Source: a virus
Virus record (IMG/VR): IMGVR_UViG_3300042197_001007
Reading direction: 5' to 3' (one strand)
Length of the DNA stretch: 64,000 bases
A model generated the notes under the pieces. The model made no database searches, was not told the origin of the DNA, and saw nothing but the letters and a program-made list of their open reading frames with translations. The translations under genes were made by a program, and so were the position numbers. Positions within the stretch are counted from its first letter, which is position 1. Every line of letters starts with the position of its first letter. Below, in pieces: positions 9,777 to 62,877 of the stretch.

Positions 9777-9847
9777 AGCGGACAACGGGGATCGAACCCG
9801 TGATTTCAACTTGGAAGGATGACGTGTTACCGCTACACCATGTCCGC
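9777..9847 (-). tRNA. tRNA-Gly(TCC)
   Basis: Cloverleaf GCGGACA/TGTCCGC, loop CT-TCC-AA, T-loop TTCGATC. Confidence 0.92.
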
Positions 9848-9871
9848 AAGGTGGGGGATGTCAACCCCCCG

Positions 9872-9964
9872 TGCTAGGCTCGCCACCTAGTTTTGACTGA
9901 ACTAGGAAACAGGCGGGAGAGAGTCCCATCCGCACCACCAATTCTTTGAGGAAATTGGAAACCT
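9872..9964 (-). ncRNA. structured RNA with two tandem pseudoknot/hairpin units each followed by UGGYG (resembles the wcaG-type cyanophage motif as recalled; unverified)
   Basis: Stems CCAATT/AATTGG and CCTAGTT/AACTAGG, each preceded by TTT and followed by TGGTG or TGGCG; central GGGA/TCCC hairpin. Confidence 0.6.
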
Positions 9965-10172
9965 ACTTCGGTTCGGAAACGAAGTTGTTAATGATATCTG
10001 CTTGTTTGAGAACTTCATTTAGTGTAGGAAACTCAGGAAGTTTTAGTTCCTGCTTTCCAGTTTTTTCATTCCATTCTCTAGCAGTATCATATTTTACGCA
10101 GAACTCATCGTTCAGCATATGATATGCTTGCTTGAAAATTTCAAAGCGAAGCTCGTAAGGTGTTTTGGACAT
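9963..10172 (-). CDS. conserved phage hypothetical protein (69 aa, MSKTPYELRFEIF)
   Basis: ORF with strong SD CAGGAG after an AC-rich leader. Confidence 0.8.
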   Translation of the reverse strand: MSKTPYELRFEIFKQAYHMLNDEFCVKYDTAREWNEKTGKQELKLPEFPTLNEVLKQADIINNFVSEPK

Positions 10173-10199
10173 TTTGTATCTCCTGTGTGTATGTGTGTG

Positions 10200-10298
10200 T
10201 TATCGAGGGGGTCCCGACCAGGGTTTTTTACGTGTCTCCATCACGGGCATTTACGGGGATGACTCCACCAGGATAAGTTTATAGTCTTTCCAGGACTT
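10200..10298 (-). ncRNA. candidate structured leader RNA with four UGG-loop hairpins
   Basis: AGTC-CTGGAAA-GACT, TCC-TGGT-GGA, CGTG-ATGGAGA-CACG, CCC-TGGTC-GGG in a GC-richer intergenic stretch. Confidence 0.4.
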
Positions 10299-10302
10299 AA
10301 TA

Positions 10303-10626
10303 TCAAAGTTTTAGAATGTCATCTGACATACCACCACGAACATTACTAAAACTGATTACATTATCATATGGTTGTTCATCAAGACCACTAAGGGTATAAT
10401 TTACATAACCATTAGAAAGATAATCCGAGGTCAGTTTGAATTTATAATCGCTGGTATTATCAGTAAAGCGAATAGGATAAGCATTCAAAATACTCTTCAC
10501 TTTACCAAGAGCATCAAACAGTTCAGACAGTTGAACATCTTGCTTTTCAGCGAGAGAATTGATCAGGGCTTGGCGCAGTGCTTCTTCAGCAGTTTCAATA
10601 TGAGAACGAACAGTCATGGTAATCAA
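10303..10626 (-). CDS. hypothetical protein (107 aa)
   Basis: ORF in operon, coupled to upstream gene. Confidence 0.7.
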   Translation of the reverse strand: MITMTVRSHIETAEEALRQALINSLAEKQDVQLSELFDALGKVKSILNAYPIRFTDNTSDYKFKLTSDYLSNGYVNYTLSGLDEQPYDNVISFSNVRGGMSDDILKL

Positions 10627-10862
10627 TCAAATTTACGGTAAGCACCCACTTCTGGGTCGGGATCTAACCACTTGGTATATTCTGGATCTTCCAAGCACAC
10701 ATCAAGTTGCATCTGGTTGTCAAGGAAATACATGTCAGTATAACGCTTGGTCCATTCATTGAACTTTTGGATACGATAGTCAGGTTTGCCGTTGATCTCT
10801 AGGAGACCACACTGGACATAACGATAAGGGGAACGTTCAAGAATTACAGTGGGTTTGGTCAT
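10623..10862 (-). CDS. conserved cyanophage hypothetical protein (79 aa)
   Basis: ORF with ATGA coupling; YRIQK...Y.DMY.LDNQMQLD.CLED.EY.KWLDP pattern. Confidence 0.75.
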   Translation of the reverse strand: MTKPTVILERSPYRYVQCGLLEINGKPDYRIQKFNEWTKRYTDMYFLDNQMQLDVCLEDPEYTKWLDPDPEVGAYRKFD

Positions 10863-11107
10863 GAAGCATCGTCGTGATCAAAGTAATTATCCCACAGTTC
10901 ATCGTCGTTGTCAAGAGGTTGTGCCGCTTTTGAAATTGTCTTGAGGTCAATTCCAGCTTCCTCAACCATAGATGCTGGGATCATGGCAACAGCAGATCCA
11001 TCATCTCTACGAATGATGTATGTTTCTCCCTGTTCTACACGCTCAACGATTTCATCAAAATTTTTTTCAAGTTCAAGTTCAGTGATTTCAATAGTTTCTT
11101 CAGACAT
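10859..11107 (-). CDS. Phd/YefM-like antitoxin-fold protein (82 aa from MSEET)
   Basis: ITELELEKNFDEIVERVEQGETYIIRRDDGSAVAMIP fits the Phd/YefM N-terminal pattern; acidic C-terminal tail. Confidence 0.6.
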   Translation of the reverse strand: MSEETIEITELELEKNFDEIVERVEQGETYIIRRDDGSAVAMIPASMVEEAGIDLKTISKAAQPLDNDDELWDNYFDHDDAS

Positions 11108-11351
11108 TACAGCAGATATCATTTTTTTGTAGATATTTAACAGTTTCTTGGCATCCACCAAGTTGAATACCATCTAAGGTAATTTGTGGGAATGTAGATC
11201 CTTCACCAAATTCAGCATAGAATTCATCAATGGTAAAATCTTTATCTAATTCATAAACAACATGGGTAAAACCTTCATGTTCCATTACAGCAATACATTT
11301 TTCGCAGAATGGACAACCTTGTTTTGAATAGATTGTAAAAGACATTGGCAC
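11100..11351 (-). CDS. glutaredoxin
   Basis: IYSK.GCPFC and TFPQI...IQLGG motifs. Confidence 0.9.
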   Translation of the reverse strand: MPMSFTIYSKQGCPFCEKCIAVMEHEGFTHVVYELDKDFTIDEFYAEFGEGSTFPQITLDGIQLGGCQETVKYLQKNDICCNV

Positions 11352-11373
11352 CTAAAAAATTATATAGTAAAGA

Positions 11374-11447
11374 TCGGGGTGATAGGATTTGAACCTACGG
11401 CATCTCGCTCCCAAAGCGAGTGCTCTACCAAACTGAGCTACACCCCG
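11374..11447 (-). tRNA. tRNA-Pro(TGG), copy 1
   Basis: CGGGGTG/CACCCCG acceptor, loop TT-TGG-GA. Confidence 0.93.
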
Positions 11448-11450
11448 ATG

Positions 11451-11469
11451 AAAGGGAGGTTTCCCTCCC
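11451..11469 (-). terminator. short hairpin terminator or processing site after the SLH protein gene
   Basis: GGGAGG/CCTCCC stem followed by TTT on the minus strand. Confidence 0.5.
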
Positions 11470-11477
11470 AGTATATA

Positions 11478-12359
11478 TCAGAACTTGATACCGAGACCAG
11501 TGGTGAACACAGGCGAATAGGTTCCGTTAGTAGCACCGTAGCTGTTAGCAGCATTGGTGGTGGGGAACTTCAGATCAGCAAAACCAACCAGTGAGTTGGT
11601 GATACGACCTTCAACGCCAAGAGCAAGCACAACCTGTCCACGATTACCAACAGCAGACTGATAGTTAGCATCAGAATTGTTCACGAAAGGAACCTGATAA
11701 CCAACACCAGTATAGAGATTGGCACGGCTCACACCAGACTTAGCACGAGAAATGCTCCAGTCATAAGACACGAGAGCACCACCAGCACTACCGATGTTGC
11801 CAGAAGGACCAGCAACAGCATTCAGGTAAGGGCGAACAGACACAGCATTCTGGTTGCTAAAGGTCTTCACAGCGTAGCGAGCCTGGAGGGTAGCACCACC
11901 AATGGTCTTCTGAGCGGTCTGACCAGCACCAGCAACACCCTGTTGGTTCAGCAGCGCACCAACGCCAACATAGTTGCCAACGCCCTGTGCCTTCTGAGCA
12001 GCAGCAAGTTCAAGAGCACTTACACGCTTGTTGGTAGCAGCGAGCTCACGGGAGAACTCGGCACGAAGAGCAGAGGCAAGACGAGCATCAGCTTCACTGT
12101 AGAAAGTGGTGATGTTGTCAAGGCAAGCGTTGGTGAGAGCAGCAAGTTCAGCACGGGTGGCAGTACGACCAGCCTGGAAAGTGCCATTAGGATAACCAGC
12201 AACACAACCATAACGTGAAACCAGATTTGAGATTGCCTGATAGGACCACTCAGTAGGTTGAACATCTTTCAGTTGTGAAACACTGGTGACTTGTGCCATG
12301 GCAGGAGCTGCGATAGAAGCAGCAGCAATGCCAGCGGCGAGAAATGAACGAATTAGCAT
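11478..12359 (-). CDS. outer-membrane protein: signal peptide, SLH domain, coiled coil, small beta-barrel (293 aa)
   Basis: DVQPTEWSYQAISNLVSRYGCVAGYPNGTF..TRAELAA is the cyanobacterial porin SLH N-terminus; amphipathic strands and terminal GLGIKF. Confidence 0.85.
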   Translation of the reverse strand: MLIRSFLAAGIAAASIAAPAMAQVTSVSQLKDVQPTEWSYQAISNLVSRYGCVAGYPNGTFQAGRTATRAELAALTNACLDNITTFYSEADARLASALRAEFSRELAATNKRVSALELAAAQKAQGVGNYVGVGALLNQQGVAGAGQTAQKTIGGATLQARYAVKTFSNQNAVSVRPYLNAVAGPSGNIGSAGGALVSYDWSISRAKSGVSRANLYTGVGYQVPFVNNSDANYQSAVGNRGQVVLALGVEGRITNSLVGFADLKFPTTNAANSYGATNGTYSPVFTTGLGIKF

Positions 12360-12404
12360 AATTTCCTATAAAAAGAGCGACATGTCATCCCTAAAATTAG
12401 GGAA

Positions 12405-12491
12405 CGGAAGGTGGGAGAGTCGAACTCCCAAGGGCTTTAACACCTCAACTGTTTTCAAGACAGGTTCCGTCGCCAATCGGATTGACCTTCC
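12405..12491 (-). tRNA. tRNA-Ser(TGA)
   Basis: GGAAGGT/ACCTTCC acceptor, CT-TGA-AA loop, long variable arm, G73. Confidence 0.92.
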
Positions 12492-12670
12492 ATATATTGA
12501 AATTGTCCTTCGGTATTATAGAACAATTTGTGGTTTTCTGTCAATACATAGTAACCTGTCAATTCCTTTCCATCATCTGTCCATCCATATGAAATAACTT
12601 TTTCATTCACCCGATCATGTTTTTTGTCCGTGTGAAGATAGTGATTATAACGTTGATGGAGATTGATCAT
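12455..12670 (-). CDS. conserved hypothetical protein (71 aa); 3' end overlaps tRNA-Ser
   Basis: ORF coupled to upstream stop (TAATG). Confidence 0.6.
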   Translation of the reverse strand: MINLHQRYNHYLHTDKKHDRVNEKVISYGWTDDGKELTGYYVLTENHKLFYNTEGQFQYMEGQSDWRRNLS

Positions 12671-12921
12671 TAGCGTACCTCAAAGTCTAGTTTGCGAACT
12701 TTACGTTTGCGTCGTTCTTCTTGGTATTTTAGGTCAGCATTTGATAACATTGGTTGTTTCTTAACATTCTTTTCAGAATTGATTAACACAACTTTGGATA
12801 GGTCAAGAGCAGATATTTGATCTCCTCTAACAGATGTCATGTTTGGACATCCACAACACTTAGTTTTCGTTGGGTGAGCCTCTAACTCCTTCCCGCAGTT
12901 CTTGCATCTGATTGATAACAT
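12670..12921 (-). CDS. Cys-rich putative Zn-binding hypothetical protein (83 aa)
   Basis: CxxC...CCGC and basic C-terminus RRKRKVRKLDFEVR. Confidence 0.75.
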   Translation of the reverse strand: MLSIRCKNCGKELEAHPTKTKCCGCPNMTSVRGDQISALDLSKVVLINSEKNVKKQPMLSNADLKYQEERRKRKVRKLDFEVR

Positions 12922-13021
12922 TTTTCAGCATTCCTTTAATTTCGTCAAGTTCTTCGTGAATATCTTGATGGTGGAACCGCAAAGGTCCCTGAATAAGTTT
13001 GTTAAAAGTTTTCTTTTTCAT
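12860..13021 (-). CDS. small hypothetical protein (53 aa from MKKKTFNK)
   Basis: ATG just downstream of tRNA-Val; the longer ORF-track start lies inside the tRNA. Confidence 0.5.
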   Translation of the reverse strand: MKKKTFNKLIQGPLRFHHQDIHEELDEIKGMLKNVINQMQELREGVRGSPNEN

Positions 13022-13037
13022 AGTTTGAGATGAAAAA

Positions 13038-13109
13038 TGGGCGATACTGGAATCGAACCAGTGACTTACCACTTGTAAGGAGGCCACTCTACCGCTGAGT
13101 TAATCGCCC
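13038..13109 (-). tRNA. tRNA-Val(TAC)
   Basis: GGGCGAT/ATCGCCC acceptor, CT-TAC-AA loop. Confidence 0.93.
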
Positions 13110-13112
13110 ATA

Positions 13113-13195
13113 TGCTCCAGAGAAGATTTGAACTTCCACGCTTTTTAAGGCGGCGGATTCTAAGTCCGCTGTGTCTACCGTTCCACCACTAGAGC
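13113..13195 (-). tRNA. tRNA-Leu(TAG)
   Basis: CT-TAG-AA loop, long variable arm, A73. Confidence 0.92.
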
Positions 13196-13209
13196 ATAGT
13201 TACTGGGTA

Positions 13210-13238
13210 ATTCTACAGTATTTAGATCATCTTGTCAA
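13210..13238 (-). promoter_or_regulatory. sigma70 promoter with embedded late-promoter-like CTAAATA
   Basis: TTGACA(13238-13233)-17 nt-TAGAAT(13215-13210); CTAAATA at 13225-13219. Confidence 0.75.
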
Positions 13239-13251
13239 GGGCATTTGAAAG

Positions 13252-13325
13252 CGTCCTCTGTAGGATTTGAACCTACGACACATCGGTTCGTAGCCGATTG
13301 CTCTATTCCACTGAGCTAAGAGGAC
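13252..13325 (-). tRNA. tRNA-Arg(ACG)
   Basis: GTCCTCT/AGAGGAC acceptor, CT-ACG-AA loop. Confidence 0.92.
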
Positions 13326-13328
13326 AGG

Positions 13329-13400
13329 CGAAGGGTGAGGGATTTGAACCCCCATCGCAAGGTTTTGGAGACCTGCATCTTACCATTAGACCAACCCAAC
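13329..13400 (-). tRNA. tRNA-Trp(CCA) with a mismatched acceptor stem
   Basis: CT-CCA-AA loop, normal D and T arms; acceptor GTTGGGT/ACCCTTC has two T-T oppositions. Confidence 0.75.
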
Positions 13401-13404
13401 AAGG

Positions 13405-13478
13405 TGTCCGTGAGAGGATTTGAACCTCCAACAAATAGATCCTTAGTCTATTGCCTCTTCCAATTGGGCTACACGGAC
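13405..13478 (-). tRNA. tRNA-Leu(AAG), short variable loop
   Basis: GTCCGTG/CACGGAC acceptor, ATAGA-CT-AAG-GA-TCTAT anticodon arm, A73. Confidence 0.8.
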
Positions 13479-13480
13479 AA

Positions 13481-13551
13481 CTGAGAAACTAGGACTCGAA
13501 CCTAGATAAACTCCTTCAAAGGGAGTTGTCCTACCATTAGACGATTTCTCA
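13481..13551 (-). tRNA. tRNA-Gln(TTG)
   Basis: TGAGAAA/TTTCTCA acceptor, CT-TTG-AA loop, G73. Confidence 0.9.
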
Positions 13552-13555
13552 TTAG

Positions 13556-13631
13556 AGTTCAGGGTGGGATTTGAACCCACGGTGATAGAAGTTTTGCAGA
13601 CTTCCGCATTCGACCACTCTGCCACCTGAAC
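13556..13631 (-). tRNA. tRNA-Cys(GCA)
   Basis: GTTCAGG/CCTGAAC acceptor, CT-GCA-AA loop, U73. Confidence 0.92.
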
Positions 13632-13633
13632 GG

Positions 13634-13705
13634 GGTGTCGTATGGGATTTGAACCCATCTACCCAGTTTCACAAACTGGTTCCTTGACCACTAGGATAAC
13701 GACAC
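13634..13705 (-). tRNA. tRNA-His(GTG), no encoded G-1
   Basis: GTGTCGT/ACGACAC acceptor, TT-GTG-AA loop, C73. Confidence 0.88.
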
Positions 13706-13706
13706 A

Positions 13707-13778
13707 TAGCAGTAGGTAGATTTGAACTACCGACCATAGGCATATGAGACCCGTGCTCTACCACTGAGCTATACTGCT
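13707..13778 (-). tRNA. tRNA with CAT anticodon (elongator Met or lysidine-Ile2; not resolvable by eye)
   Basis: AGCAGTA/TACTGCT acceptor, CT-CAT-AT loop, weak anticodon stem. Confidence 0.8.
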
Positions 13779-13782
13779 AAAA

Positions 13783-13864
13783 TGGACGCTGACCTGATGG
13801 ATACTCTTTCTGCGGAGGGAGGCGTCAGTCTTTTATATCCTAGCAAGCACCTTGCTGGAGTCCA
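13783..13864. ncRNA. unassigned 82-nt structured RNA between tRNA-Ser(GCT) and tRNA(CAT)
   Basis: Closing stem TGGAC/GTCCA, stems AGCAAG/CTTGCT and CTGAC/GTCAG, pseudoknot GGATA/TATCC. Confidence 0.6.
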
Positions 13865-13865
13865 A

Positions 13866-13948
13866 CGGAAGATGTTGGGATCGAACCAACGGAGGTTTTA
13901 TCCTCACGGTTTAGCAAACCGCTGCATTAACCACTCTGCCAATCTTCC
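13866..13948 (-). tRNA. tRNA-Ser(GCT)
   Basis: GGAAGAT/ATCTTCC acceptor, TT-GCT-AA loop, long variable arm. Confidence 0.92.
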
Positions 13949-13951
13949 ATA

Positions 13952-14023
13952 TGGAACCGACAAGATTTGAACTTGTGACCGCTCGGTTATCAGCCGAGTG
14001 CTCTACCACTGAGCTACGGTTCC
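13952..14023 (-). tRNA. tRNA-Ile(GAT)
   Basis: GGAACCG/CGGTTCC acceptor, CT-GAT-AA loop. Confidence 0.93.
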
Positions 14024-14027
14024 AAAG

Positions 14028-14100
14028 TGGGAATTGGTGGACTTGAACCACCCACGCAAGGTTCTTCAAACCTTCGCTCTACCAGATGAGCTAAATTCCC
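14028..14100 (-). tRNA. tRNA-Phe(GAA)
   Basis: GGGAATT/AATTCCC acceptor, TT-GAA-GA loop. Confidence 0.9.
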
Positions 14101-14104
14101 AAAG

Positions 14105-14176
14105 TCCAGAAGGTTGGATTTGAACCAACGTCCTCACCGCCCCAAACGGTGCCGTCTACCACTGACTTACTCCTGG
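14105..14176 (-). tRNA. tRNA-Pro(TGG), copy 2 (divergent)
   Basis: CCAGGAG/CTTCTGG acceptor (C1-G72, A73), CACCG-TT-TGG-GG-CGGTG. Confidence 0.82.
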
Positions 14177-14180
14177 ATGA

Positions 14181-14252
14181 TAGTCTCAACGGGACTTGAA
14201 CCCGTGTCTACACTGTGAAAGAGTGTTGTCCTAACCACTAGACGATGAGACC
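14181..14252 (-). tRNA. tRNA-Glu(TTC)
   Basis: GGTCTCA/TGAGACT acceptor, CT-TTC-AC loop. Confidence 0.9.
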
Positions 14253-14256
14253 AAAG

Positions 14257-14329
14257 CGACCCTAACGGGATTTGAACCCGTGATACCACCGTGACAGGGT
14301 GGCGTGATAGACCACTTCACTATAGGGTC
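14257..14329 (-). tRNA. tRNA-Asp(GTC)
   Basis: GACCCTA/TAGGGTC acceptor, CT-GTC-AC loop, G73. Confidence 0.92.
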
Positions 14330-14333
14330 AAGG

Positions 14334-14424
14334 TGAGAGAGGAGGGAATTGAACCCCCGATGGTTCCAATGTAACGGTTTTACAGACCGCAGCCACACGT
14401 ATTGCCAACAGTAGCCACTCTCTC
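14334..14424 (-). tRNA. tRNA-Tyr(GTA) with enlarged D-arm
   Basis: GAGAGAG/CTCTCTC acceptor, CT-GTA-AA loop, long variable arm. Confidence 0.85.
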
Positions 14425-14427
14425 ATA

Positions 14428-14500
14428 TGGGTTTGGTCGGGGTCGAACCGACGACTTACAGGTTAAAAGCCCGCTACTCTACCAACTGAGTTACAAACCC
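14428..14500 (-). tRNA. tRNA-Lys(TTT)
   Basis: GGGTTTG/CAAACCC acceptor, CT-TTT-AA loop. Confidence 0.93.
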
Positions 14501-14515
14501 AAATAATGTGATAAA

Positions 14516-14564
14516 TATTCAGTTGTCAAGGTGCTGGTGGTCTCTCGACCACTTGATTAGAATA
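14516..14564 (-). promoter_or_regulatory. tRNA-operon leader: extended -10 followed by boxB-like hairpin and boxA-like element
   Basis: TGG-TATTCT (-10 at 14564-14559), GTGGTC-GAGA-GACCAC (14552-14537), GCACCTTGACAA-CTGAATA (14534-14516). Confidence 0.6.
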
Positions 14565-14622
14565 CCACCGTTTGGTCTCTGGGGAGGGACTGGTGGACAC
14601 TTGAAGGACCGTCACAAGCAAC

Positions 14623-14656
14623 AAAAAAGGGGAGGAAACTTTTGGTTTCTCTCCCC
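14623..14656 (-). terminator. intrinsic terminator upstream of the tRNA-operon promoter
   Basis: GGGGAG.GAAAC/GTTTC.CTCCCC-type stem flanked by A and T runs. Confidence 0.7.
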
Positions 14657-14684
14657 GTTCTTTTGCTTTTATGAATTACATATC

Positions 14685-14783
14685 TTACATATGCTTATCC
14701 ATATCCGCAAACAGGGGAGATCCCTCAATATGCCAATAGCGGCAATCGAGAATACTAAACTGTTTGGGCATTGGATAAGACAT
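14685..14783 (-). CDS. 32-aa late-expressed micro-protein MSYPMPKQFSILDCRYWHIEGSPLFADMDKHM
   Basis: Hand translation; perfect TATAAATA late promoter at 14813-14806. Confidence 0.5.
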   Translation of the reverse strand: MSYPMPKQFSILDCRYWHIEGSPLFADMDKHM

Positions 14784-14832
14784 TGTTTTCGACCTTTAAT
14801 GTGTTTATTTATAAGAGTTTTTGAAAACTCAA

Positions 14833-14906
14833 CGCCTCAGGTTGGATTCGAACCAACGGCTAACCGCTTAGAAGGCGGATACTCTAGTCCACTGAGTTAC
14901 TGAGGC
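14833..14906 (-). tRNA. tRNA-Arg(TCT)
   Basis: GCCTCAG/CTGAGGC acceptor, CT-TCT-AA loop. Confidence 0.92.
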
Positions 14907-14920
14907 ATGTAGATAGTATA

Positions 14921-15376: not shown

Positions 15377-15739
15377 TCAGATCCTACTATAGCATACAGT
15401 TGTCACACCTTGCCCTGGGTGAGCAATAGAAGAGAACGCACCATAAGACAGGTCAAGATCCCTATCTCCAACATAGGGTCCGCGATCATTTACACGCACA
15501 ATTACAGATCTACCATTTCGTTGATTCGTAACTCGTAATCTGGTTCCGAATGGAAGCCATCTGTGTGCTACCGATTTACCGTATGCGTTATACTTTTCGC
15601 CATTAGCAGTTGTTTGCCCATGATATCCATCACCAATTCCATAATGTGAAGCGAGGGAACATCCGCTCGCTGCCTTTGCTGTTACGGGTGCCAATCCGAC
15701 GAGACCAAAGGCAAGAATTGAAAGTGTTTTAAGAAGCAT
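15377..15739 (-). CDS. rlpA: RlpA-like (double-psi beta-barrel) lytic transglycosylase with signal peptide
   Basis: ASHYG....HGQTTANGE.YN....AH..LPFGT.LRVTN..NGRSVIVRVNDRGPY...RDLDLSYGAF. Confidence 0.88.
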   Translation of the reverse strand: MLLKTLSILAFGLVGLAPVTAKAASGCSLASHYGIGDGYHGQTTANGEKYNAYGKSVAHRWLPFGTRLRVTNQRNGRSVIVRVNDRGPYVGDRDLDLSYGAFSSIAHPGQGVTTVCYSRI

Positions 15740-15740
15740 T

Positions 15741-15820
15741 AATTTACATTGAACTCTACATCCCAATAGAGAAAGCGCACTTCCCCCCTCTCAAGGGGCA
15801 ATCTCCTGGGCTCTAATTGT
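15741..15820 (-). ncRNA. structured 5' leader (riboswitch-like) of the RlpA-like gene
   Basis: Nested stems GAGC/GTTC, CCCAG/TTGGG, GAGA/TCTC, CCCCTT-GAGA-GGGGGG ending just before the ATG. Confidence 0.55.
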
Positions 15821-15936: not shown

Positions 15937-16176
15937 ATGAAACTCAATCTAAATAAGCTCATTTTTATCGTATGCGTATCAGCAGTTGGATTTGTTGGTC
16001 TCAACTTTGTTGCCTGTAACTTCATGATACCAGGATCTATCATTAGTGCTAATGTGTTAGGAGGACTAAAAAATCCTCCTCCCCTGGATTGTAAAGAATC
16101 CGAGAGAAGAGGATATGAAACTTTATTGGCAATTCTGACTACTGTAATTGCTCTAAGAACTAAAGTAGAAGATTAA
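15937..16176 (+). CDS. small membrane protein (79 aa), the only clear plus-strand gene
   Basis: Two hydrophobic segments; CTAAATA at 15909-15915 and GAGGG SD upstream; stop overlaps the lysozyme stop. Confidence 0.7.
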   Translation: MKLNLNKLIFIVCVSAVGFVGLNFVACNFMIPGSIISANVLGGLKNPPPLDCKESERRGYETLLAILTTVIALRTKVED

Positions 16177-16667
16177 GAAACCCAGAGTTTACCTTCTGCT
16201 TTTCTTCTTCTAAGTAATCCTGCTTCAACTTTGCTGCCAGGATTACGATACATCTCTAATACTTTTGGTACATCATTCCATTTGTGATCTTTGAGTATTC
16301 TTGAGATCGTGTCAAACCCAGGACTGTTAAAAAAGTTAGCCCCGAGATTGTAAGCAAAAGATAATAATGCTCCACGCTGGTTTTCATTCATCTCTCCCCA
16401 ATACGGTATTTTTGCGAGTGTTGGAATGTATTCTTTTTTAATTTGAGAGATTAGCAGATCATCAGCAACTTTTTGGGAAATCTTTTGACCGAGTTTAAAT
16501 GGTTTTCCATTAAAATCTCTGGTGCTTCCCCATCCTATAGTAATAGGTAATCCGCCAGTACGAGGGTCTGGATAAGCAGTTAATTCACAACCCTCAAATT
16601 CTTTAATGAGTTCTACTCCTTTTGCGGGTAAAGTGTATTTACCTGTAAAAGGAGTAGAACTTGTTAC
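16173..16667 (-). CDS. GH24 phage lysozyme domain, apparently reached only via a -1 frameshift
   Basis: Frame open 16676-16173: LIKEFEGCELTAYPDPRTGGLPITIGWG...QRGALLSFAYNLG...GLLRRRKAEGKLW; no ATG/GTG/TTG before the catalytic Glu. Confidence 0.85.
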   Translation of the reverse strand, partial: VTSSTPFTGKYTLPAKGVELIKEFEGCELTAYPDPRTGGLPITIGWGSTRDFNGKPFKLGQKISQKVADDLLISQIKKEYIPTLAKIPYWGEMNENQRGALLSFAYNLGANFFNSPGFDTISRILKDHKWNDVPKVLEMYRNPGSKVEAGLLRRRKAEGKLWVS

Positions 16668-16690
16668 TTTTTTGCATCAAAAATCCTTCC
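16610..16690 (-). promoter_or_regulatory. -1 programmed ribosomal frameshift signal
   Basis: GGAAGG(16690-16685), A-AAA-AAG(16673-16667), 6-nt spacer, 14-bp stem 16660-16647/16623-16610. Confidence 0.8.
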
Positions 16691-17365
16691 CCATCCATCG
16701 TTACCCTTAGGGCACCATCTACGAACAAGATCAGACTTTTTATATACAGCACCTTTGCCATTGGTTACAGCACCAGTGTATCCATCATTTAGTGAACCAT
16801 ATGGATCATTCACCACATAATCACCAGAAGGTGTCTTACCAATCACTACACACATGTGCCCACCAGTAGGAGCAGATAAAGAACCCCTGTGGAGAATACC
16901 AATAACAACGGGTCTGTTAGCAGCAAGCTCACGATCAAGGTCATTGAAAGTAAGACTATAGCTAAACTGTGACTGAATACCATAAGACGCCAGAGCACGG
17001 GTTTGAACCAAGTGATCTGTTGTATCACCGATTGAGAATACTTTTTGAACATAAGCATCATCACCCTTTGCTCCTTTTAAAGTACCAGGCTTGAAGTATT
17101 CAAGTACCATAGCACAAGCAGAAGAATTACAGGTTCTATCAGCATCTCTATAGTTGTCTGTCTGAGGAAAGAAAGGAACATCAAGAATTGATGTTCTTGG
17201 TTTGTCTGGTTGTGATCTAAAAATCTTCACCCAGTTTGCTGTATCTTCCATTTCTTCTGGTGCTTTTTTGTCAAGCGTCTTTTCCAGTTCTTCTACAGCA
17301 GCGCGATGTTTTGGGTTATTTTCATCGTAGTGTTTAAAAAAATTGTGAAGGTCAATCTTGGGCAT
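16664..17365 (-). CDS. C39-like cysteine peptidase with N-terminal helical domain (cell-wall hydrolase, start MPKIDL)
   Basis: LDVPFFPQTDN....TCNSSACAM, GHMCVVIG, VNDPYG catalytic Q/C/H/D pattern; GGAG SD 6 nt before ATG 17365. Confidence 0.85.
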   Translation of the reverse strand: MPKIDLHNFFKHYDENNPKHRAAVEELEKTLDKKAPEEMEDTANWVKIFRSQPDKPRTSILDVPFFPQTDNYRDADRTCNSSACAMVLEYFKPGTLKGAKGDDAYVQKVFSIGDTTDHLVQTRALASYGIQSQFSYSLTFNDLDRELAANRPVVIGILHRGSLSAPTGGHMCVVIGKTPSGDYVVNDPYGSLNDGYTGAVTNGKGAVYKKSDLVRRWCPKGNDGWGRIFDAKK

Positions 17366-17699
17366 TGGGTTCTCCATAGAGGTTTATAAAATATTCCGCA
17401 TCAACTACAACTAATGGACTTTCTCCATTCTTCTTTATAACCACAATTGGTTCATAATTTCCTTTGTTGGCAACAGCTTGTTTGTATGCCTCCCAGATAT
17501 TTAGTTTCTCCACATTCTTACACTCAATACTGTGAGGAAATTTTGACCTGGCATCCCTTGCCATAATTAGATCCTCACCTCCCGCGCCCATACTACGACT
17601 TTCAATATCTTCGGGATGAATATTAAGACATTCTATTAATTTTTCACGTACCCATTGTTGAAGACGACGACCTTTTGCTTTAGCAGATTGTGGACGCAT
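17352..17699 (-). CDS. PD-(D/E)XK nuclease, Holliday-junction-resolvase-like (115 aa)
   Basis: KAKGRRLQQ...GEDL...SIECKN.EKLNIWEAY.QA. Confidence 0.75.
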   Translation of the reverse strand: MRPQSAKAKGRRLQQWVREKLIECLNIHPEDIESRSMGAGGEDLIMARDARSKFPHSIECKNVEKLNIWEAYKQAVANKGNYEPIVVIKKNGESPLVVVDAEYFINLYGEPNAQD

Positions 17700-62754: not shown

Positions 62755-62877
62755 TTATTCTTCCTCTTTTTTTCTATGGATGTATTGAATACCAAGAATA
62801 GGAACTACGATAACTCCAAATCCGCATAATCCTAACCAGATTTGACTTTCTGCTAAATGTTCAATGAGGGTAAGCAT
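62755..62877 (-). CDS. 40-aa single-TM protein
   Basis: Hand translation MLTLIEHLAESQIWLGLCGFGVIVVPILGIQYIHRKKEEE. Confidence 0.6.
   Translation of the reverse strand: MLTLIEHLAESQIWLGLCGFGVIVVPILGIQYIHRKKEEE

Follow-up and report, generated by a model that had tools for sequence, protein, structure and literature searches.

How does a cyanophage translate a lysozyme gene that has no start codon? The question is raised by a locus in virus record IMGVR_UViG_3300042197_001007, of which we analysed one stretch of 64,000 nucleotides (hereafter the window). The window belongs to a T4-like cyanophage (Kyanoviridae) whose nearest isolate is Synechococcus phage S-PM2, with 75% nucleotide identity across the locus. 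A C39-like peptidase gene is followed there by a glycoside hydrolase family 24 (GH24) lysozyme in the -1 frame. An original prediction, made from the sequence alone, proposed that a dnaX-like -1 frameshift yields a 233-aa peptidase and a 397-aa peptidase-lysozyme fusion. Our comparative analysis supports this through a conserved slippery heptamer, a covarying stem-loop, the constant -1 frame of the lysozyme and the existence of collinear in-frame fusions. In our judgement, a -1 programmed ribosomal frameshift (PRF) of the dnaX type very probably operates at the 3' end of this cyanophage peptidase gene.

The peptidase-lysozyme junction

The end of the peptidase open reading frame (ORF), the in-frame TGA, the GH24 ORF in the -1 frame and the lack of a start ahead of the catalytic Glu, all described in the original prediction, were confirmed (Table 1). 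The peptidase starts at ATG 17365 with GGAG 6 nt upstream, a position which agrees with the N-termini of homologues; an alternative ATG at 17377 would give 237 aa. The lysozyme frame is open for 167 codons after the TGA, from 16676, and carries the catalytic residues (Glu in EFEG, Asp in PDP, Thr in ITIGWG). It contains no ATG, GTG or TTG ahead of the catalytic Glu, and its earliest ATG, at 16391, lies 92 codons downstream, close to the 90 or so first estimated. Since the -1 frame is shut by TGA one codon ahead of the heptamer and the zero frame is shut by TAA directly after it, the frame can change only within 10 nt, essentially the heptamer itself, which is located at 16673-16667 in the correct register as predicted. 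The value of openL-P was 23 in most junctions and 14 in three, including S-PM2 and S-CAM7.

Downstream of the heptamer, the 14-bp stem and inner GGTAAA/TTTACC hairpin of the original prediction are both present. GTTCTACTCCTTTT (16660-16647) pairs perfectly with AAAAGGAGTAGAAC (16623-16610), and one extra A-U pair (16661/16609) extends the stem to 15 bp and leaves a spacer of 5 nt. Folding of 111 nt across the site with RNAfold gave -31.1 kcal/mol (z -4.05), and the 70 nt 3' of the heptamer gave a z-score of -9.4. The two strands of the window contain 36 AAAAAAG sites, and the 15-bp stem at this locus is by far the longest that follows any of them; the runner-up has 11 bp and the others have 8 bp or fewer. 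That runner-up, at 62772 on the minus strand, was rejected as a candidate since it is intergenic and its stem is AU-rich. A permissive Rfam scan of 16500-16800 returned only sub-threshold miRNA-type hairpin matches and no known frameshift element.

From this anatomy the following sequence of events can be proposed. A ribosome would reach A_AAA_AAG while the stem-loop sits at the mRNA entrance, and in a subset of ribosomes the Lys-tRNA(s) would re-pair one base back. The shifted ribosomes would then translate ...DAKK-VTSSTPFTGKYTLPAKGVELIKEFEG... and the whole GH24 lysozyme after it, and the unshifted ribosomes would stop at the TAA. Two products would result, an N-module-peptidase and an N-module-peptidase-lysozyme, at a ratio presumably set by the RNA signals, and the lysozyme would be produced solely as a fusion. 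That shifting occurs, and with what efficiency, we infer from the features described here and below.

Junction classes among related phages

The original prediction proposed an alignment of homologous loci as a check; in the loci that we collected, the heptamer is conserved, the spacer is 2-8 nt and the stem covaries. Homologous loci came from 80 IMG/VR contigs obtained with the peptidase as query, 25 obtained with the S-CAM7 peptidase as query, and eight cultured phages, and a script assigned 105 related loci and the window to junction classes. In class A (44 loci, 32 distinct junctions, among them the window, S-PM2 and S-CAM7), a heptamer and a stop occur with no start nearby and with the lysozyme in the -1 frame. 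In class B (22 loci, 14 distinct junctions, 11 of them with A_AAA_AAG; e.g., S-SRM01), the lysozyme begins at an ATGA or GTGA overlap and is still in -1. Class F (9 loci, 7 distinct junctions; isolate ACG-2014f) has a single in-frame peptidase-lysozyme ORF of about 405 aa, and in class D (35 loci) no lysozyme is present downstream. All non-fused downstream lysozymes lie in the -1 frame (53/53 in the first classification set, and all later loci), every compared frameshift locus has an uninterrupted lysozyme ORF that retains the catalytic residues, and the motif (I/L/V)P..G(V/I).L(I/V)K.FEG is kept across all classes.

These observations bear on the reading that the junction is an artefact or a decaying gene, that is, a homopolymer error hiding a true A7 run or an inactivating frameshift in a once-fused lysin. 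Relatives with in-frame fusions do exist, and a single added A would give one ORF. However, S-PM2 has the same A6 run and stop in each of its three GenBank records, and so do G001 and over 40 independent assemblies from metagenomes that have otherwise diverged to 74-84% protein identity; in G001, a near-identical relative that was assembled independently, the A6 run, the stop and the stem are identical to those of the window. Given also the intact lysozyme throughout and a covarying hairpin, which is not expected of a pseudogene, we regard this reading as extremely improbable.

Conservation of the slippery heptamer

The string NNA AAA AAG is unvarying in 40 distinct junctions of classes A and B, where flanking third positions are 30-60% conserved. 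The codon that precedes AAA AAG is GCA, GTA or GAA, such that the amino acid changes and the third-position A is constant; Lys codons elsewhere in the compared genes are 270 AAA and 129 AAG. TAG or TAA follows the heptamer immediately in 27 of the 42 distinct junctions of the two classes, and the remaining junctions read on for one or two codons or are of the class B overlap-start kind. The heptamer is absent from classes D and F and from loci whose lysozyme comes with a long N-terminus of its own (L034 type, DSL-LC03); in DSL-LC03 the peptidase terminates GWGRIFD-stop.

A run of identical bases could also act during transcription. RNA polymerase slippage on A6 (T8 in S-CAM7) would add one A in some transcripts and thereby yield the fusion by standard translation, and the 8-T run of S-CAM7 and the A7 (GAA AAA AAG) of one lineage are compatible with it. 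For productive polymerase slippage, runs of about 8-9 identical bases or longer are usually required, and by that measure A6 is short. Moreover, the G at position 7 and the codon register are unvarying, and a covarying stem-loop 2-8 nt downstream has the spacing of ribosomal shifting and is a feature of that process rather than of polymerase slippage. Transcriptional slippage is documented as another route to two dnaX products in Thermus (PMC5009743); for the cyanophage junction, we hold it very unlikely.

Stem-loops across relatives

A stem-loop lies 2-8 nt 3' of the heptamer in 32 distinct start-less junctions. In the 70 nt after the heptamer, these class A junctions showed a median minimum free energy of -17.6 kcal/mol and a median z of -2.9, with z below -2 in 22/32, as compared to z +0.5 in the in-frame fusions of class F (below -2 in 0/7) and z -0.8 in the overlap-start loci of class B. 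At least five unrelated stem sequence types occupy the equivalent place: GTTCTACTCC / GGAGTAGAAC, GAATCAACACCACA / TGTGGTGTTGATTT, GCCAACTAA / TTAGTTGGC, GGCTCTGCAC / GTGTAGAGCT and, in the S-CAM7 lineage, GTAGAACC / GGTTCTAC. Their 3' arms differ in position relative to the lysozyme domain, which indicates that the conserved quantity is the distance to the slippery site. For the same reason, a joint alignment of two stem types gave no consensus structure, and the stem types were folded separately; RNAalifold then found compensatory double changes in 3/11, 2/14 and 2/10 pairs of individual types (e.g., a U-A pair of the window corresponds to C-G in S-PM2).

The S-CAM7 lineage has a T_TTT_TTT heptamer, a 5-nt spacer and a stem of its own, and here too the lysozyme, which lacks a start, lies in the -1 frame. 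In a quick tree this lineage fell within a clade of in-frame fusions, the joint clade having 100% support in the Shimodaira-Hasegawa-like approximate likelihood ratio test (SH-aLRT) and the inner branches being weakly supported. This grouping suggests a second origin of the -1 arrangement.

At the start-less junction of L083 (962-1048), the strongest helix begins 14 nt past the heptamer and an alternative TAGAAC/GTTCTA pairing is available from the stop codon. The stimulator there could be more complex or pseudoknotted.

Another reading is separate initiation of the lysozyme, either at an ATT codon (16607-16605, the Ile of LIKEFEG) by means of AAGGAG, or by termination at the TAA and reinitiation. 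In either case the heptamer would do no more than encode Lys-Lys, and the hairpin would govern access to AAGGAG. The class B lysozymes, with their ATGA/GTGA overlap starts, indicate that coupled initiation is in use for this gene pair, and AAGGAG, 8 nt and ATT occur in this order in both the window and S-PM2. Yet this sequence, which resembles a Shine-Dalgarno (SD) element, is confined to the GGAGTAGAAC stem type, of which it forms the 3' arm, with none in the TGTGGTGTTGATT, TTAGTTGGC and S-CAM7 types; nor do the junctions share a conserved ATG, GTG or TTG. With a start at ATT the lysozyme would lose 6/11 residues of its first helix, a helix conserved both among solved GH24 enzymes and in our model. 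Separate initiation further leaves unexplained the constant -1 frame, the unvarying third base of the preceding codon, the stem distance kept to the heptamer and not to the lysozyme domain, and a linker collinear with in-frame fusions. We therefore consider a separately initiated lysozyme very unlikely.

The predicted fusion protein and its domains

From one end to the other, the predicted trans-frame product can be aligned with gp211 of ACG-2014f, an in-frame ORF of 405 aa, at 234 identities (58%), and at the junction GWGRIFDAKKVTSS... stands against GWGRTFQA-KVTAK... of ACG-2014f (DAKKVT against QA-KVT). In-frame fusions of the same domain order were also found in L087-L095, P0020 and P0030, and fusions of reverse order in S-CREM1 and P0004-P0016. 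The peptidase Cys (TCNSS), His (GGH) and Asp (DP) are unvarying in 15 homologues. An AlphaFold model of the in-frame fused L088 (pLDDT 74) comprises an N-terminal helical module, a papain-like domain, a linker which is neither helix nor strand, and the lysozyme, whose first helix (KAGVELIKQFE) lies upstream of any start-like codon, as in solved GH24 enzymes. In Foldseek searches the lysozyme part of this model matched phage GH24 endolysins, and the peptidase part gave weak matches (E 1e-3 to 1e-2) to 3erv, 6mpz, 5xe8 and the pseudomurein endoisopeptidase PeiR, which are C39-like and papain-like proteases. By sequence, the lysozyme matches endolysins in the Protein Data Bank (PDB) and P22 lysozyme. 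An analysis of codon positions in the linker, which is fast-evolving and constrained by the RNA stem, gave no clear third-position excess and was not used.

Proteins P0003-P0074 carry the C39-like domain fused in frame to GH24, to GH108 with PG_binding_3, to GH19 ('predicted chitinase'), to LysM with PG_binding_1, and to Phage_GPD baseplate-type domains, which marks it as a cell-wall module. Across cyanophages and cyanobacteria it is a very promiscuous one. As the papain-fold peptidase and the muramidase are both cell-wall hydrolase modules, the long product would be a bifunctional peptidoglycan hydrolase, and judged by its domains it is most likely the lysin. The original prediction spoke of a two-product endolysin system; two products have comparative support, and the term endolysin goes further than that. 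Among homologues of the peptidase domain, some carry a fused baseplate-type gpD domain, and given these a virion-associated role is conceivable.

A match to the N-terminal module of about 50 aa forms the N-terminus of the separately encoded DSL-LC03 lysozyme (L111 1783-1932; 50% identity, E 3e-15), and two tandem copies separate lysozyme and peptidase in the reverse-order fusions (P0004-P0016). The module may have a targeting, wall-binding or pairing role. Lysozymes with their own copy of the module have no heptamer upstream and lysozymes without a copy are reached via the heptamer, a mutual pattern which suggests, though it does not prove, that the shift serves to supply the muramidase with the module. 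The N-terminal extension of the L034-type lysozyme gave no BLASTP match to the peptidase N-module and an hhalign probability of 31%.

Observations that weigh against a frameshift

Several observations count against the frameshift or call for caution. Among the features by which -1 PRF is recognised, we found the slippery heptamer in a frame overlap, the 3' structure and conservation beyond coding needs, but not a 5' SD-like stimulator. The GGAAGG named as such in the original prediction does lie at 16690-16685, 11 nt upstream, and a role as stimulator is not supported, as anti-SD pairing is no stronger than in controls (median -6.1 kcal/mol in frameshift loci, -8.4 in in-frame fused and -7.4 in peptidase-only loci). 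The sequence is present because Trp-Gly-Arg codons dictate it, and on both grounds we leave it out of the cassette.

Retention of the heptamer in 11 distinct class B junctions, in spite of an overlapping lysozyme ATG or GTG, implies that the heptamer by itself is no proof of shifting; recent ancestry or the coding of Lys-Lys could account for its retention there. The predicted structure is weak in a few start-less junctions (z about 0 in L101 and L102, -0.6 in L044), and the presence of AAGGAG and ATT in the window and S-PM2 adds to the side of separate initiation. A dedicated host tRNA-Lys(CUU) would reduce the shiftiness of AAG, as has been argued for Thermus (PMC5009743). The support for shifting is, besides, comparative throughout. 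Taken with the conserved, unvarying features described above, these points leave the frameshift very probable in our view.

In the class B loci L002, L029, L058, L064, L066, L070, L073 and L081, A_AAA_AAG lies two codons upstream of the overlap start, with the lysozyme in the -1 frame. Some class B junctions have a short hairpin 6-7 nt downstream (e.g., GATTCCAG/CTGGAATC). Both a fusion and a free lysozyme might be produced in this class.

Comparison with known systems

The cassette resembles that of E. coli dnaX (tau/gamma) in its A_AAA_AAG heptamer, a simple stem-loop about 5-6 nt downstream and two products sharing their N-terminus. A closer match is the 'reversed' dnaX of some bacteria, in which a zero-frame stop comes right after the site and the long product results from the shift (PMC5009743). 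The cyanophage cassette differs from dnaX in that the gene encodes a peptidoglycan hydrolase rather than a polymerase subunit, the 5' SD stimulator is unsupported, the shift would add an entire catalytic domain instead of removing one, and the host is a cyanobacterium, with the phage supplying its own tRNA-Lys(UUU). According to the same source (PMC5009743), a 5' SD is optional in bacterial PRF (e.g., cso2), and weak pairing of tRNA-Lys(UUU) with AAG underlies the shiftiness of A_AAA_AAG in E. coli.

In lambda-like and many other tailed phages, the tail assembly chaperones gpG/gpGT are produced by a -1 frameshift (Xu, Hendrix and Duda 2004, cited in PMC5506516 and PMC5009743). The logic is parallel, with conservation by position and not by sequence; the gpG/gpGT products serve structural assembly and lack an enzymatic domain, and their sites usually have no strong 3' structure, whereas in the cyanophages the extension consists of an enzyme domain and the site is followed by a covarying hairpin.

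Two-product endolysins arise in other phages from internal in-frame starts, as in the enterococcal Lys170 and the clostridial CTP1L, where the short form is the C-terminal binding domain. As is predicted for the cyanophage locus, each of these lysin genes gives a full-length protein and, in a presumably fixed proportion, a shorter one that shares part of its sequence; the cyanophage short form, in contrast, would be the N-terminal part and would result from failure to frameshift. The in-frame cyanophage fusions (ACG-2014f gp211, L087-L095, P0020, P0030) have the same domains in the same order with a similar linker length, and being single ORFs with neither heptamer nor hairpin, they would give one product only.

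No publication on a frameshifted phage or cyanophage lysin was found in the literature searched, whose coverage left most subscription journals outside, and in a 2016 recoding review the words endolysin, lysozyme and cyanophage do not occur within the 300,000 characters available. The proposed mechanism is of the classical, dnaX-like kind, and what is new is the class of gene. In GenBank, the lysins S-PM2p157 (72 aa; L001 2551-2769) and S-CAM7 gp246 (90 aa; L004 2254-2526) are truncated: they are annotated from the first internal ATG, lack the catalytic Glu and carry no ribosomal-slippage join.

Genomic context

Small membrane ORFs and an RlpA-like gene lie close to the lysozyme locus, and the neighbourhood of the hydrophobic ORF and the RlpA-like gene is also seen in S-PM2 (p158-p160) and S-SZBM1; it may constitute a cell-wall or lysis module. 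The array of phage tRNA genes just downstream includes one for tRNA-Lys(UUU).

Table 1. Features of the peptidase-lysozyme locus and its surroundings in the window.
Feature	Position	Strand	Remarks
RusA-like gene	17352-17699	-	followed by the peptidase ORF on the same strand
Peptidase ORF, zero frame	16664-17365	-	233 aa; about 50-aa helical N-terminal module and C39-like papain-fold domain; ends GAT GCA AAA AAG TAA
N-terminal module	17210-17365	-	about 50 aa, IDLHNFFK.YDE..H..A...LE......W..(I/T)(F/Y)R; helical in model; no Pfam match
Peptidase_C39_2 (PF13529) domain	16799-17185	-	Pfam 48.4 bits, cut-off 24
TGA shutting the -1 frame	16677-16679	-	one codon ahead of heptamer
Slippery heptamer A_AAA_AAG	16667-16673	-	X_XXY_YYZ register of peptidase frame
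Zero-frame stop TAA	16664-16666	-	immediately 3' of heptamer
3' stem-loop, candidate stimulator	16609-16661	-	15-bp stem 16661-16647 / 16623-16609; 5-nt spacer after heptamer
Inner 6-bp hairpin GGTAAA/TTTACC	16643-16638 / 16632-16627	-	caps the stem
AAGGAG (16621-16616), 8 nt, ATT (16607-16605)	16605-16621	-	inside stem 3' arm; only conceivable non-canonical start
Linker and GH24 lysozyme, -1 frame	16173-16667	-	164 aa after the predicted shift; stop 16175-16173
Phage_lysozyme (PF00959) domain	16194-16604	-	Pfam 79.8 bits, cut-off 22.3; full profile 1-125
Hydrophobic ORF, 79 aa	15937-16176	+	convergent with lysozyme gene; 4-nt overlap with lysozyme stop
RlpA-like (DPBB) lipoprotein gene	15377-15766	-	follows lysozyme region
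Array of 21 phage tRNA genes	9777-14907	-	just downstream of lysis-type genes
tRNA-Lys(UUU) gene	14427-14501	-	within tRNA array; would decode both codons of A_AAA_AAG

Implications

Tentatively, and as a possibility that we rate well below the frameshift itself, the shift may be a selected device which ties the muramidase to the N-module of about 50 aa at a tuned ratio to free peptidase. In-frame fusions would have given rise to such a device on at least two occasions, as A_AAA_AAG and, in the S-CAM7 lineage, as U_UUU_UUU. It would be kept in class B despite the lysozyme ATG and would be absent where the lysozyme carries its own N-module, and the phage-encoded tRNA-Lys(UUU) may help to set its efficiency.

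A frameshift at this junction would add a natural case of -1 PRF in a new gene class, the phage cell-wall hydrolases, and a case in cyanobacterial translation, where documented recoding events are very few. It would correct the lysin annotation in the model cyanophages S-PM2 and S-CAM7 and in hundreds of metagenomic cyanomyovirus contigs. The unrelated, equally placed hairpins are a ready series for the effects of stem sequence and spacer on shift efficiency. The family is a natural experiment in which the same two domains occur as in-frame fusion, reverse-order fusion, separate genes, overlapping coupled genes and frameshift fusion, and this variety of arrangements makes the reason for a fixed ratio of short to long lysin directly testable.

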